Shown: positions 31,314 through 53,663 of the stretch, in pieces
Layout: each line of letters starts with the position of its first letter
How positions within the stretch are numbered: position 1 is the stretch's first letter
NCBI GenBank assembly: GCA_963749305.1
Contig: CAVVMN010000006.1
Span: forward strand, 87,975 to 151,974
Origin: an uncultured Acidimicrobiaceae bacterium
GTDB taxonomy: Bacteria; Actinomycetota; Acidimicrobiia; Acidimicrobiales; Palsa-688
Reading direction: 5' to 3'
Length of the DNA: 64,000 bases
Translations under genes and position numbers: made by a program
The notes under the pieces: model-generated
What the model was told of the DNA's origin: nothing
The model's database searches: none
The model's input: the letters and a program-made list of their open reading frames with translations, nothing else

Positions 31314-34273
31314 GTGAAGTCAATGCACGAACCAATCGTTTCGGCGCGGACTCGCGTACCGCCACTAACCGGGCAGCCGCGCACCCGGGTTAACGCGCTC
31401 ATCGAAGCCAGCTGGCGTGTGCCGCTGGCTGTCGTTGTCGCGCCGGCAGGCTCGGGGAAGACGACGACCCTGGCCTTATTCGCTCAGGCGCAACGCGAAG
31501 CGGGCCGAGCCGTGGCCTGGTACCAAGCCGGTATTTCGGAAGCAGACCCGGCGCGTCTCCTTCGTTATCTGGAAGGAGCCGTTCGCCAAGTTGTCCCCAC
31601 CGTCCCGCCCGGTTGGGACACGGTTGATAGGGCCGCGGCTGCGTTCGAAGCGGTACCGTTGCCTCCCCTGATCATCGTTGTCGACGACGCTCACACGCTT
31701 TGGTCGACGGCAGCCGAAGCCACCTTGGAGCGTCTTGTGGCCTACTTGCCGGCTGAAGCCCATTTGGTCCTGGCCGGACGGCACCCTCCGTCGTTCGATT
31801 TACCCAGATGGCGCTTGGCCCGTCAGGTTCTCGAAATAGGCCCTGACGAACTCCGCTTCCGCTCCTGGGAAGTCGAAGAGCTCTTCGCTCAGCACTATGG
31901 AGTGCGATTGGTGCCCGAGGAAGTGGCGGAGCTGGCTCGCCGTACCGGTGGTTGGGCGGCGGGATTGTCACTTTTCCACCTGGCCACGGAAAACCGGTCG
32001 GTGTCAGAGCGCCGGAGGGTGTTGGCTTCGATGTCAAGCCGTCTACTGGATACCCGGGATTACCTGACACACAACGTCCTGGCCACCCTCGAAGCCGATC
32101 AGCAGGAGTTCCTGATCGGGACCTGCGTCCTGGGGCGACTGTCAGGAGCGTGGTGTGACCAGCTCATGAACACCTCGGGGAGTGCCCGCCGGCTCGAGGA
32201 CTTGGCGCGGCGGCACCTCTTCCTGGTCAGTCACGACGGAGGTATTACGTACCAGGAACACGAGGTGCTCCGGTCTTTCCTGGAAGAACTGCTCCTCGAC
32301 CAAGTTGGAGAGGAGGGGATCCGGGCCCTTTACGCCACGGCCGGGCCGATACTCGAAATGGGCGGAGCATACTCAGAAGCCCTCCGTTGCTACTGCCGGG
32401 CACAGGACTGGGATGCCGTAGACCGGCTGTTGGGATTTTCCGGTGACCGTGTTGTCGACCCCCTGGGCCCTGGGGCGACGCCCTTCCGCCCGCCGTTGCC
32501 GACCACGACGCCTGGTATTTGTTGGCGATCGCTCGCCGCCAGGTGCGTTCGGGGCATTGGGCTACGGCACAAGAGAGCTACCGTCGCGCCGAGGATGTGG
32601 CAACGGGCGAGCTCGTCCGCCGGACGTGCGAGAGGGAGCGTATTCAGCTCGTCGGCTGGATGGACCCGGGTACAACCGTTCCTCACGACTGGACGGGCGT
32701 CCTGCGCAGCGCATTGGCCCGCAACCCTCTCGTTGTCGTAGAGGATCTCGACATTCGTTCGGTGGGGAACCAGCTGGCGAGCGGCCTGGGTGCTATGGCC
32801 GCGGGCTGCATGTCACGCGCTCACGCCATATTCGCGGCCGAAGCAGCCGATTCGCCGGCCGCCTCAGTCCTCAGCCGATGGGTGGACGCTTTCCGCCTGT
32901 TCACGGCGCGTTTGAGCGGGTTGCCGTACAGCGAAGCGGCATTTCACTCCACCCTCAACGATATTGACCCCAATCTGCCGCCCTGGCTGGCCCGCCTGTT
33001 GCACGCGTTGGCCGGTCGCCCGAGCGGTCTCCTTGACCAGCTAGAGGCAAGCCGAGGCGAGGCGCTGGCGACCGAGAACGCTTGGGCTGACCTCGTGTTC
33101 GGGCTGATAGACGGCTGTTCTCTGCTGGCCGCCGGGCGGGGCCTAGAGGCGGTCGCCCGCCTTGATGCGGCCGTCGCAACGGCTAGTGCATTGGGCGTGC
33201 AGGTCGTGGCCGCGTGGGCGGCCGCCGGCGCCAGCCTCGGGTTACTGTCCTCGGACCCAACCGGTGCCGCCCGTCGCGCCGTCAATAGCGACCAGTTGGC
33301 TCGTTCGGTGGGGTGCCCCGGCGCGTCCGCCCTTTCTCTTCTCGTCGAAGGGGCTGCCCGGGGCCACCCAAAATGGCGCGACGCCGCCGATCCGCTCGAG
33401 ATCGAAGGAGTGGTCCCGATGGCGGGCGTCGTGGCTCAGTGCCTCGGGACGTTGAGCGAGCGGGTGGGGGACGGGCAGGGTGGCGCACTCGAGAACACCG
33501 CGGGCCGGCTCGACGATGTAATCACGTCCAGGTCAGGAGCGCTCCCAGCGCGGGAGCCCGACGTTCGTTGCCTGGGCACCTTTTCCCTCATTGTTGCCGG
33601 CCGGGCGGTCGACAGCGCTCTGGCCAGGCCCCGGGTCCGGGCGCTGCTGCACTATTTGGCCATGCAGGCCGGCGCCTATGTACACCGGGACACGCTTTGT
33701 ACCGCGCTCTGGCCCAACGACGAGGCCCGAGCCGCCACGCATGGCCTGCAAGTTGCGGTATCTGCTTTGCGGCAACTCCTGGAGGCCCAGGCAGGCAAAG
33801 GTGCTGGGTCTATCATCGCCCGGAAGGGAGAGTCATACGGCCTCGAAGTTGATGTTGCCGTCCACGACCTGGCTCAGTTCGAGGTCAGCCTGGCACAGGC
33901 GCGGGTCGCCCGGAACAGCGGTAATCACGAGCAAGCGGTGGCGGATCTGCGACCTGCCTTGGCTCTTTACCGCGGCGACCTCCTCGAGGACGCGGGTACC
34001 GCCGAGTGGGTGCTTGGGCCACGCGAGCGGTACCGGCTGATGGCCTCCGAGGCCAGCCAGCTCTTAGCTGCGTGCCTACTTGACCTGGGGGAGCCGACAG
34101 AGGCAGCTGCAGTGGCCGGCTGGGGTCTAACCATTGACCGTTACTGCGATGCGCTCTGGAAGCTGATGATCGCCGCTCACGACCAAGGATCCAATCAGGC
34201 CGCCAGCGCCAGGACGCGGAACGACTATCGCCGTGTGCTGGCCGAGCTGGGCGTCGGTCAGGACGTCTCCTGA
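31314..34273 (+). CDS. large regulator: N-terminal STAND/MalT-like P-loop ATPase, helical repeats, C-terminal SARP module (winged helix + BTAD); apparent frameshift
   Basis: Walker A VVVAPAGSGKTT and Walker B LIIVVDDAH. C-terminal RCLGTFSLIVAGRAV...RVRALLHYLAM... and BTAD-like ALALYRGDLLED...RYCDALWKLMIAAH. ORFs 31314-32741 and 32519-34273 join if one base is added near 32465-32470. Confidence 0.75.
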
Positions 34274-35067
34274 CCTTCGTCGTCACCGGGGCTAGCCGGC
34301 GGTGCTGGTGGCTCGTCAGGACCAACCTGGCTCGGCTGGGCCGGCGGGCCGACGGGCCCTTCCGGGCCGTCGTATTGCTCCGTGGGGGCCAGAGGGGGAG
34401 ATGGGGCACGAGTGGGCGGTGGCGGCTCCTGGCTCGCACCTCGGCCAGGAAAGGCAGTTGGGGGCGGTGGCGACCACTTAACCTCGGGACGCCTAACCAC
34501 ATCGATGACGTGGGGCACGTGCGCCGGCTTGACGGATGTGACGATTCCTTCGAGGCGGTTGAGGTCGAGATCGTCCTCAGTCCCGACGGTCAGCTGGACC
34601 CTTAGCTCAGCGACCGAGCTCCCCGGCAGGTTGCCGTCGGGGGTCGTGGACCAGGCCACTCCACCGGAGTCATGCACCTCGGGCACGACGCCGGTAAAAA
34701 GGCGGATGTGCTCGATTATCCCGCGCACTGTCCCGTGCCATCGATAGAGATCGCCGGCCTCTATTACAAGAGTGCGCCGTTGTTCTTCGGGCCAGTTCTG
34801 GTCGAGGCTGAGGCCGACCCATCCAGCCAGCCAATCGAGGTAGTCCGCCGGAGTAAGCCGAGGGTCGAAGTAAGCCTCCATGCAGTCCAGGGTCACGGTC
34901 GCAGGGGTCAGCACGCAGTCGAGGCCGGCGCAAAACCCGCTAACGAACTCGGGCCCGCCCCGTTCCTCCTTTCGGTCCACGGGCTCCAAGAAGACCCCGG
35001 GCAGCAGAGATTCGAGGGTGCGCGGAGGGCCGGTCCCAGGCATAAGACCACGGCCTGAAAACGTCAC
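34258..35067 (-). CDS. CIS baseplate protein, P2 gpI-like (Afp12-like)
   Basis: ...LLPGVFLE...FVSGFCAGLDCVLTPATVTLDCMEAYFDPRLTPADYLDWLAGWVGLSLDQNWPEEQRR...YRWHGTVRG resembles phage tail protein I family proteins. The Pro-rich tail and GTG start overlap the upstream stop. Confidence 0.75.
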   Translation of the reverse strand: MTFSGRGLMPGTGPPRTLESLLPGVFLEPVDRKEERGGPEFVSGFCAGLDCVLTPATVTLDCMEAYFDPRLTPADYLDWLAGWVGLSLDQNWPEEQRRTLVIEAGDLYRWHGTVRGIIEHIRLFTGVVPEVHDSGGVAWSTTPDGNLPGSSVAELRVQLTVGTEDDLDLNRLEGIVTSVKPAHVPHVIDVVRRPEVKWSPPPPTAFPGRGASQEPPPPTRAPSPPLAPTEQYDGPEGPVGPPAQPSQVGPDEPPAPPASPGDDEGQETS

Positions 35068-52867: not shown

Positions 52868-53663
52868 TCCCCGCCGCCGTCAGAAGCATCGTCCCCGTTA
52901 CCGGGCGCATAGGTGGTGTCGCGCAACCGAAAAATGCGGCCCCGTTTGTCGCCTGTCCCGCCGACGACTGTCTCCTGTCCCTCTTGGCCACCCTCAGGTG
53001 CGCCCGGCTTGTCACGCTTCTTGCTGCGACCGCCTTTCGAAGCGCCACCTTTGGCCGTACCGCCTGAGGAGCGGCCGTCCCCGTCCCCGGGGTCGCTTAT
53101 GGCTACGTTCAGGCGCACACCCTCTTGTACGAGCCTGGCCGCCAGGTCCACCGGGCCGGCCTCGAACGGCGATATGACAACGAGGTCCAGTGAAGGTTTT
53201 AGCTCCCCCCGAGCGCGGACCACACGTCCGACAACGCCCGGTCTTCCGGAGGTGGCAAGGCGACGGTCACGGCGATTGGCAGCGTCGAACCCGCCAATCG
53301 GCCGGCCAGCACGTCCAGCGGCAGGTGGTCGTGGCGCAAGAGGCAGAGGAGTACCGCGGAGAGCAATCGGTGCTCGTCTTCGGGCCGCTGCGTCCATGCC
53401 GTAACGAGGTACGACAGCTTGTAGTACCTGGGTGGCCGTCGTCTCTCTTTCACGTGCCCGGCCTCGTCGAGGACGTCGATAAGCCCGTTCTCCCGCCGGC
53501 GCAGGTCCTCACGGATGTCGTACAGGTACATGTCGAGCGTGGGCGAGTTGCGCCGCGCTGACCATTCTCTAGTCGGGGCGTCAAGGAGGACCTCGACGTC
53601 AGTCCCTGTTAGCGCGTCCCGGCGGATCAGGGTACGTAGTGACTCGTCAACGTCCTGGATCAT
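52864..53663 (-). CDS. DUF4255 tail-terminator/cap protein (Afp16-like), apparent frameshift
   Basis: MIQDVDESLRTLIRRD...TLDMYLYDIREDLRRR...YYKLSYLVTAWTQRPEDEHRLLSAVL. ...SALGG/ELKPSLDLVVISPF is restored by adding one base to the C6 run at 53205-53210. Basic Gly-rich tail. Confidence 0.8.

Follow-up and report, generated by a model that had tools for sequence, protein, structure and literature searches.

Contractile injection systems (CISs) of Streptomyces are the closest described relatives of the gene cluster analyzed here, which lies on the minus strand at positions 34258-53663 of a 64-kb stretch of DNA (the window). Structures of the Streptomyces CIS have been determined (8bky, 8bl4, 9gtp, and 9gts; Casu et al. 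2023, 2025); the system has two tube genes, is without the Afp13 fibre, the typical Afp14 tape measure, and ClpV, and was shown to stay in the cytoplasm (PMC10066040). A cytoplasmic location, stress-induced firing, and death of the producing cell characterise this type. Its bitopic protein CisA (SCO4242; 75 homologues reported), encoded just after the baseplate genes, consists of an unstructured cytoplasmic N-terminus, a transmembrane helix, and a C-terminal domain of ~150 amino acids (aa), while the Sco4256-58-type effectors of Streptomyces contain a PapD-like domain, a transmembrane helix, and a lectin-like C-terminal domain. A Sle2/Sle1 effector pair was described in 2026 (PMC13277306). The Pvc16_N tail terminator and the AAA+ ATPase are the features that separate extracellular contractile injection systems (eCISs) from phage tails (PMC10020575), and regulators of the GerE and BTAD types have been reported next to eCIS loci (PMC8213781). 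The machine itself was published in 2023-2025, and the arrangement of the effector, with a deaminase variant among the examples, in 2021 and 2026. The explanation that best accounts for the window as a whole, and that we consider probable, is that the locus is a chromosomal CIS of type IId, similar to the Streptomyces system CIS-Sc, in an uncultured, Acidimicrobiaceae-like soil actinobacterium.

Profile searches were carried out with Pfam and NCBIfam, with open reading frames (ORFs) of at least 150 aa scanned over the full 64 kb, and 80 related loci, Streptomyces included, were fetched for comparison. The locus encodes a full particle, comprising the cap, the sheath, two tubes, a LysM initiator, a VgrG spike, a PAAR tip, gp25, baseplate J, and gpI. 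The genes between positions 34258 and 53663 are given below in their reading order; "after repair" refers to the reversal of the small insertions and deletions (indels) described further on.

52864-53663, minus strand: cap or tail terminator (Cis16, Pvc16_N), 266 aa after repair; Pvc16_N E-value 8.7e-36, PDB 9gts_0A E-value 2.3e-59
50783-52867, minus strand: AAA+ ATPase (Cis15), 694 aa, intact; Pfam WHD E-value 7.9e-33, AAA E-value 3.6e-24; 89% identity to the closest genome, L001
49905-50684, minus strand: small DUF4157/eCIS_core protein, 259 aa, with an HExxH motif, Sle2-like adaptor; eCIS_core E-value 2.8e-34
46268-49876, minus strand: effector (large toxin), ~1200 aa, ATG at 49876, from reconstruction
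46041-46267, minus strand: non-coding gap between effector and sheath, 227 bp, sequence read directly
44501-46040, minus strand: sheath (Cis2), 512 aa after repair; Pfam Phage_sheath_1 and 1C; 8bky_A E-value 1.1e-211 over residues 1-507
44012-44460, minus strand: tube (Cis1a), 149 aa after repair; Phage_T4_gp19; 8bl4_v
43578-44015, minus strand: conserved protein of 145 aa in the tail-assembly chaperone position, intact, with a C-terminal CxxC
43425-43581, minus strand: DUF6760, 51 aa; Pfam DUF6760 E-value 3.4e-13, faint Phage_P2_GpE match
40365-43418, minus strand: tape-measure-slot protein, 1017 aa, Pro/Ser/Ala/Thr-rich, intact in the window
39918-40354, minus strand: second tube or tube initiator (Cis1b), 145 aa after repair; Phage_T4_gp19 E-value 5e-19 on the C-terminal fragment
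39238-39925, minus strand: LysM tube initiator (Cis7), 228 aa after repair; CIS_tube on both fragments and LysM
37453-39219, minus strand: VgrG-like spike (Cis8), 587 aa after repair; Phage_GPD and Phage_base_V E-value 6.1e-27
37030-37434, minus strand: gp25-like baseplate wedge protein (Cis9), 134 aa, intact; GPW_gp25 E-value 7.3e-25
35067-37030, minus strand: baseplate J (Cis11), 654 aa after repair; Baseplate_J; 9gtp_1K E-value 1.6e-239 over residues 1-652
34258-35067, minus strand: gpI-like wedge protein (Cis12), 269 aa; Tail_P2_I E-value 4.7e-13; 9gtp_E (190 aa) E-value 6.8e-37 over residues 4-192

The original prediction had named these genes on the minus strand, in this order and at these coordinates, and the profile searches confirmed all of them; its calls for the sheath, tube, gp25, and baseplate J all held in Pfam, and the results support its interpretation. 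The 227-bp gap that it had placed before the sheath was found at exactly the position listed, and a scan of this gap for a consensus promoter or terminator found none. The best PDB matches were to Streptomyces CIS structures and extended over nearly the full length of the sheath (8bky/8bl4), baseplate J (9gtp), cap (9gts), and gpI (9gtp_E), with the tube match to 8bl4_v being weaker (E-value 2.7e-27) and not near full length. The sheath shares 61-62% identity with those of Streptomyces, and the gene order is collinear with 43-80 of the 80 related loci, Streptomyces included. The phage-like order attributed earlier to actinobacterial CISs was recovered here, together with full-length orthologues of CIS-Sc parts. 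Close sheath relatives occur in at least 587 loci of a species-representative genome collection, across Actinomycetota and Chloroflexota. Both CIS-marking features, Pvc16_N and the AAA+ ATPase, are present. The locus also shows the Streptomyces pattern in having two gp19 genes, no match to a fibre or ClpV, and a tape-measure-slot protein that matches no family. The type IId assignment is proposed because of the near-full-length matches to the Streptomyces structures, the collinear order, the two tubes, and the lack of fibre and ClpV matches.

Capsid, portal, terminase, integrase, and a type VI secretion system (T6SS) membrane complex gave no Pfam match among the ORFs of at least 150 aa in the window, as had been predicted; capsid or terminase genes contiguous with the locus, which would have made it a prophage tail module, were looked for and none were found nearby. 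Likewise, Pfam scans of the window found neither an Afp13-like fibre, whose absence had been noted before, nor a receptor-binding gene. The T6SS reading was rejected, since its defining genes, TssJLM and ClpV, had no Pfam match anywhere in the window. A tRNA scan of the window found none, and an Rfam scan gave nothing useful.

The gene for the 145-aa protein is present in 79 of the 80 related loci, and the identical protein occurs on 9 public contigs; no Pfam or NCBIfam family matched it. The GTG start of DUF6760 overlaps the stop codon of the preceding gene, and the two genes occupy the slots where phage tails encode a chaperone pair. The 1017-aa tape-measure-slot protein also had no family match in Pfam or NCBIfam. 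Comparison with the related loci revealed that only its ends are conserved (the N-terminal end in 40 loci, the C-terminal end in 55), that the length of the slot ranges from ~270 to 1330 aa, and that the middle is disordered; the protein might plausibly fill the lumen or set the particle length. Among the long genes, it is the only one that is whole in the window while being broken in L001 and in three near-identical assemblies of the same population (L081, L082, and L083). At the other end of the core, the gpI protein (Cis12) carries an extra Pro-rich C-terminal tail of ~75 residues (34258-34480, minus strand) beyond the part that matches the 190-aa Cis12 chain of S. coelicolor.

The DUF4157 gene, the effector, and the sheath are consecutive genes. 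The reconstructed effector has the LQxxVGNxAV motif in its N-terminal part, a helical region rich in Ala and Lys, a further helical region that is hydrophobic, and a deaminase-like domain at the C-terminus. The core, formed by the helical and hydrophobic middle parts, is 44-50% identical to the sheath-adjacent gene of five Streptomyces loci, and this homology, together with the small DUF4157 protein encoded upstream, points to a Sle2/Sle1-type pair (PMC13277306). The main cargo is therefore likely to be a Sle1-type effector, a membership drawn from the gene at the same position in the Streptomyces loci. The suggestion that the machine carries different cargo fits this result, in that a Sle1-type core is joined to a putative AID/APOBEC-like deaminase and the effector is not of the Sco4256-58 type. 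No immunity ORF was found in the 227-bp gap downstream of the effector or in L092, a relative with the same C-terminal domain. A strong negative AT skew (-0.33) at 48001-50000 coincides with the Ala/Lys-rich N-terminal part of the minus-strand effector.

The last 276 residues of the effector carry an HAE...PCxxC zinc motif (GRHAEASV ... TRTPCNEC). This domain is rare: a word-indexed search returned 7 matches, all close relatives, and an exhaustive search returned 27 among 1.84 billion representatives. More distant relatives form the ends of other long proteins; two of these proteins (P0069 and P0071) start with DUF4157. Several of the remote homologues exceed Pfam cut-offs for AID/APOBEC-like families, among them P0066 for SNAD4 (30.9 bits) and P0074 for APOBEC_N (40.9 bits). 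A PDB sequence search with the domain found no match. With an AlphaFold2 model of the domain as query, all of the top 50 Foldseek matches in the PDB (50/50) were AID/APOBEC proteins, the best with an E-value of 3e-5. The C-terminal domain is thus predicted to be an AID/APOBEC-like deaminase, which would deaminate cytosines in nucleic acid.

Comparison of close strains revealed that the effector is polymorphic. In the very close strain L083, the effector (3117-6101) shares roughly the first 110 residues and then continues as a different protein, and three extra small ORFs precede the sheath; the L001 effector (5796-9001) has the same core and a different C-terminal domain. The LQxxVGNxAV motif, N-terminal in each of its carriers, occurs exactly three times in the six-frame translation of the window, with 0 occurrences expected by chance. 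Its carriers are the DUF4157 protein (site 50466-50495), the effector, and a protein encoded beyond the cluster (site 55383-55412), and the motif may represent a shared loading or adaptor-binding tag. The third carrier is listed here.

55269-57768, plus strand: candidate third cargo, divergent from the GerE regulator, with the N-terminal LQxxVGNxAV and a C-terminal SH3_3 domain

This region consists of two overlapping ORFs of 305 and 554 aa, which probably represent a single frameshifted gene, and its product had no homologue among the related loci. The middle of the product contains "AGHG" and "NACL" stretches reminiscent of the His-Cys dyad of the caspase/CHAT type.

The particle genes are flanked by regulators and by an accessory operon, as follows.

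54378-55001, minus strand: GerE/LuxR-family regulator immediately upstream of the cluster; Pfam GerE E-value 6.6e-12
53672-54376, minus strand: cysteine-cluster protein of 234 aa between the GerE regulator and the cap gene; weak CxxCxxCC match, E-value 0.013
31314-34273, plus strand: SARP-like regulator made up of a STAND NTPase, a winged helix, and BTAD, transcribed towards the baseplate genes (convergent); Pfam matches to AAA_16, Trans_reg_C, and BTAD
29757-30968, minus strand: zinc-ribbon bitopic membrane protein, 403 aa, first gene of the accessory operon; Pfam zinc ribbons
29365-29754, minus strand: PAAR-like protein of the spike tip, 129 aa; PAAR_motif in Pfam at 27.7 bits (cut-off 27)
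27992-29431, minus strand: Ig/PapD-like membrane protein, with an N-terminal Ig/PapD-like domain, a transmembrane helix at residues 276-294, a Ser/Thr-rich linker, and a C-terminal domain
24989-27972, minus strand: final accessory-operon gene; the product is signal-anchored and combines repeats of beta-propeller-like type with a PKD domain and a long linker rich in Thr

The genes for PAAR and the membrane proteins and the two regulators all lie outside 34258-53663, and the system is therefore larger than this interval. The locus had earlier been called complete; this stood for the core set, and it did not stand for the interval, which omits the PAAR, membrane-protein, and two regulator genes, or for the window sequence, in which the locus carries 12 indels.

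GerE homologues adjoin the cluster in 28 related loci, while the cysteine-cluster protein is found in only 5, all of them Acidimicrobiia assemblies (L001, L011, and L052 included). The STAND/BTAD regulator is split in the window into ORFs of 475 and 584 aa by one private indel at ~32468 and forms a single ORF in L083 (984 aa) and in the further sister assembly L091 (983 aa). The PAAR gene was also called in L090 and L091. The zinc-ribbon membrane protein consists of two cytoplasmic zinc ribbons, a Pro-rich linker, a transmembrane helix at residues 224-242 (by hydropathy), and an ectodomain of 160 aa, the model of which (predicted local distance difference test [pLDDT] score of 79) is a beta-sandwich with F5/8 type C (discoidin) and CBM32 domains as the best Foldseek matches. 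An "I-C-x2-CG...FCGxCGxFLEW" zinc ribbon stands at the start of the gene that immediately follows gpI, in many cases with an overlap, in ~17 related loci. Because these relatives share the zinc-ribbon opening, the product of 29757-30968 appears to be the protein of the fibre/CisA slot, displaced by the regulator; its architecture is CisA-like, with the likeness being one of layout and gene position. The Ig-like membrane protein gave weak Cep192_D3 and choice-of-anchor-T matches, and 21-23 related loci have a homologue of it adjoining the GerE regulator; its layout resembles that of the Sco4256-58-type effectors. The final operon gene appears frameshifted (452 and 559 aa), with indels in the repeat region that differ between assemblies.

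Comparison of the window with its relatives revealed that 12 indels of 1 or 2 nucleotides (nt) split 9 of the 16 genes of the locus, as obtained by full reconstruction. Several ORFs of the window are too short or end in the middle of a Pfam profile, and the proteins of L001 align to the window in 2-3 frames each. Of the genomes in the species collection, L001 (the Acidimicrobiaceae metagenome-assembled genome [MAG] MFD04463.bin.2.145) is closest to the window; the DNA identity is 85%, and its genes are mostly intact over the locus. It has private frameshifts of its own at ~6542 and 7020 (effector) and at 11774-14715 (tape-measure-slot gene), so this reference is not error-free. The window has a GC content of 65%, where the frame plot of third-codon-position GC was too noisy, and the frameshifts were therefore placed by tblastn against intact relatives, as follows.

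53211: cap, 1-nt deletion in a G run, private to the window
49785 and 49076: effector, both in G/C runs
45193: sheath, 1-nt insertion, private to the window
44186: tube 1, 1-nt deletion
43561: DUF6760, 1-nt insertion
40254: tube 2, 1-nt deletion
~39683: LysM tube, 1-nt insertion
39182, 38615, and 38137: spike, three 1-nt insertions
35430: baseplate J, 1-nt deletion in a G run

Long, near-identical assemblies of the same population (L081, L082, which is the same contig as L090, and L083) were found by exact-protein look-up, and L091 was added by a look-up of close relatives of the zinc-ribbon membrane protein. The contig names and MAG labels presumably point to nanopore metagenome assemblies. 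The window, L081, L082/L090, L083, and L091 share 96-99% DNA identity, and each has its own set of broken genes; multiple alignments gave 10 private indels in the window, 7 in L082, and 22 in L081, and private indels also occur outside the CIS, in flanking genes. The window and L090 differ by 124 substitutions and 31 gaps, a gap-to-substitution ratio (31:124) that is not plausible in coding DNA under selection. Six short metagenome contigs of the Joint Genome Institute (JGI; L084-L089) span only tube 1, the 145-aa gene, DUF6760, and the C-terminal end of the sheath; tube 1 is intact in L084-L088, and tube 1, the 145-aa gene, and DUF6760 are intact across L084-L089. Repair of the indels alone restores every ORF, with zero nonsense codons and zero deletions, and the protein identity to L001 is 92-97% on either side of each break, while the DNA identity is 85%. 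Because the indels are private to each assembly, affect flanking genes as well, and are absent from three genes in the JGI contigs, the frameshifts do not appear to reflect decay; they are almost certainly errors of long-read assembly, and the genes of the organism would be intact.

Taken together with the Streptomyces system, these genes suggest the following mechanism. The particle would assemble in the cytoplasm around the disordered 1017-aa tape-measure-slot protein, as orthology and gene position suggest, and the small DUF4157 protein may help to load cargo, with the three LQxxVGNxAV proteins being the adaptor and its putative cargoes. The zinc-ribbon membrane protein would tether the baseplate to the producer's own membrane and trigger firing under stress, as does CisA of Streptomyces, and the AID/APOBEC-like deaminase of the Sle1-type effector would then be released and deaminate cytosines in nucleic acid. 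Expression may be controlled by the GerE and STAND/BTAD regulators next to the cluster. By this analogy, the particle would act inside the producing cell; CIS-Sc is the fibre-less cytoplasmic system to which the original prediction had alluded.

Several results weigh against parts of this reading. Cytoplasmic firing is borrowed from Streptomyces, with which the sheath shares the 61-62% identity given above. The deaminase domain of the window itself scored 20-21 bits against Pfam cut-offs of 25-27, and its structural model is mediocre (pLDDT of 70, target-normalised template modelling scores of 0.4-0.59). The ectodomain of CisA has been described as solute-binding-like (PMC12237407) and that of the window protein is discoidin-like; moreover, a regulator gene on the opposite strand separates the membrane-protein gene from gpI. 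A search for the family of the Ig-like membrane protein in the five Streptomyces loci, by iterated local and profile searches, found nothing significant, and Sco4256-type effectors are therefore not demonstrably present. Finally, the indels at 49785, 49076, and 35430 are each common to one other assembly (35430 with L091). We regard these three as systematic errors, with less certainty than the others, because of their G/C-run context.

Two alternatives to a functional CIS concern the nature of the locus. The structural genes are all homologues of phage-tail genes in a phage-like order, and DUF6760 matches P2 gpE faintly, as would be expected of the tail module of a defective prophage or of a tailocin (an R-pyocin-like bacteriocin). 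We consider this origin barely credible, since the Pvc16_N terminator and the AAA+ ATPase (PMC10020575) are both encoded, since neither capsid, portal, terminase, integrase, lysis, and fibre genes nor a tRNA were found in the window, and since the flanks are ordinary chromosomal DNA (a Kup transporter, dehydrogenases, MFS transporters, and a P450). If the frameshifts were real, the locus would instead be a decaying relic, a string of pseudogenes from which particles are no longer made. The number of frameshifts (12 in 9 of 16 genes), the position of several of them outside homopolymers, and the 35430 indel in common with L091 all favour decay. Most indels of the window are nevertheless private, the sister assemblies, 96-99% identical, have private indels of their own, the indel-to-substitution ratio of 31:124 is accompanied by equal damage to flanking genes, and there are neither nonsense codons nor deletions, while proteins are strongly conserved on both sides of the breaks and tube 1, the 145-aa gene, and DUF6760 are intact in L084-L089. 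A relic is accordingly very unlikely in our view.

The remaining alternatives concern the site of action, and the sequence does not discriminate between the producer and another cell as the target. The particle might be a classical eCIS, released upon lysis of the producer and injecting its deaminase effector into other microbes or eukaryotes by a binding mechanism not recognised here. DUF4157-linked toxins, including the deaminase EAT11 of Amycolatopsis, kill E. coli and yeast when expressed (PMC8213781), and many of them are without immunity genes, as would be expected of a producer that dies in any case (PMC8213781); the window effector is likewise followed by no immunity ORF, and the effector polymorphism between close strains is what would be expected of an antagonistic weapon. 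On the other hand, no fibre or receptor-binding gene was found in the window, the post-baseplate slot of the relatives holds a bitopic membrane protein, and the structural proteins are orthologous to those of the system that was shown to stay in the cytoplasm (PMC10066040), so that we judge extracellular action unlikely, though worth keeping in mind. A release of the deaminase in the producer, with no linked immunity protein, might further amount to stress-triggered, self-directed editing of DNA or RNA, an idea that extends the analogy with Streptomyces and to which we give only a slim chance. If true, it would mean programmed hypermutation or genotoxic suicide and not a weapon against other cells, and the strain-to-strain swap of the effector C-terminal module would change the outcome. 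An intracellular CIS of the Streptomyces type remains the reading that we prefer.

The remaining genes of the window are ordinary chromosomal genes, encoding a Kup transporter, dehydrogenases, major facilitator superfamily (MFS) and ATP-binding cassette transporters, a P450, a two-component system, and a methyltransferase. Among the non-CIS genes, a GntR/aminotransferase (MocR-like) gene at 61134-62461 (minus strand) gave a partial aminotransferase profile match and overlaps a second ORF, probably owing to another assembly frameshift.

With this locus, intracellular CISs of the Streptomyces type would also be represented in Acidimicrobiia, which are abundant in soil and of which few members have been cultured. 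The locus suggests that the membrane protein, the PAAR tip, and the regulators travel with the CIS despite rearrangements of their positions. The Sle1-type effector, a natural one with a rare, predicted APOBEC-like deaminase and no immunity gene, could help to test whether the producer or other cells are the target. A practical lesson is that long-read metagenome assembly can make an intact 20-kb machine resemble a row of pseudogenes, which comparison with sister assemblies resolves.

Comparison with known systems places the locus as follows. It resembles Afp and PVC of Serratia and Photorhabdus in the sheath's C-terminal domain (with matches to 6j0b and 6rao), the tube, gp25, the Pvc16 cap, and the AAA+ ATPase, and differs from them in its phage-like order, the lack of an Afp13 fibre, and the presence of one sheath paralogue only, with the sheath similarity being limited to the C-terminal 200 residues. 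With the DUF4157-associated eCIS toxins (EATs; Geller 2021), exemplified by the EAT11 deaminase of Amycolatopsis nigrescens, it shares a DUF4157 that adjoins the toxin, GerE and BTAD regulators nearby, and, in the remote homologues P0069 and P0071 of the C-terminal domain, an N-terminal fusion to DUF4157, which in the window is a separate gene. The predicted deaminase resembles the AID/APOBEC-like deaminases (Pfam SNAD4, APOBEC_N, and NAD1) in its HAE...PCxxC motif, and its best Pfam and Foldseek matches all belong to this clade; it is only ~14-17% identical to solved APOBECs, is bacterial, and ends a ~1200-aa effector of the injected type. The Sle2/Sle1 pair of Streptomyces lividans SLP (Sle1 is SLIV_17115; Nagakubo 2026, PMC13277306) has the same small DUF4157 protein and large helical effector beside the sheath, and differs in that the window effector is co-directional with the sheath. 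In Micromonospora eburnea RS14790/RS14785 (PMC13277306), the variable C-terminal module is cytidine-deaminase-like, as in the window, and RS14785 is an immunity protein, whereas no immunity gene lies downstream in the window. From CIS-Sc of Streptomyces coelicolor and S. venezuelae (cis1-16, SCO4242-4260; dbeCIS type IId; Casu 2023, Vladimirov 2023, Casu 2025), the locus differs in its host, which belongs to Acidimicrobiia and not to Streptomyces, in a membrane-protein gene that is displaced behind the STAND/BTAD regulator and encodes N-terminal zinc ribbons and a discoidin-like ectodomain, in the lack of Sco4256-58-type effectors among those found in the window, in an effector that is encoded co-directionally with the sheath and contains the putative deaminase, and in the Pro-rich tail of gpI. 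The two have in common the same structural gene set in the same order, two tube paralogues without an Afp13 fibre, a typical Afp14, or ClpV, a PAAR gene, as in S. venezuelae, and, by layout and gene position, a bitopic membrane protein that appears to belong to the slot after the baseplate genes.

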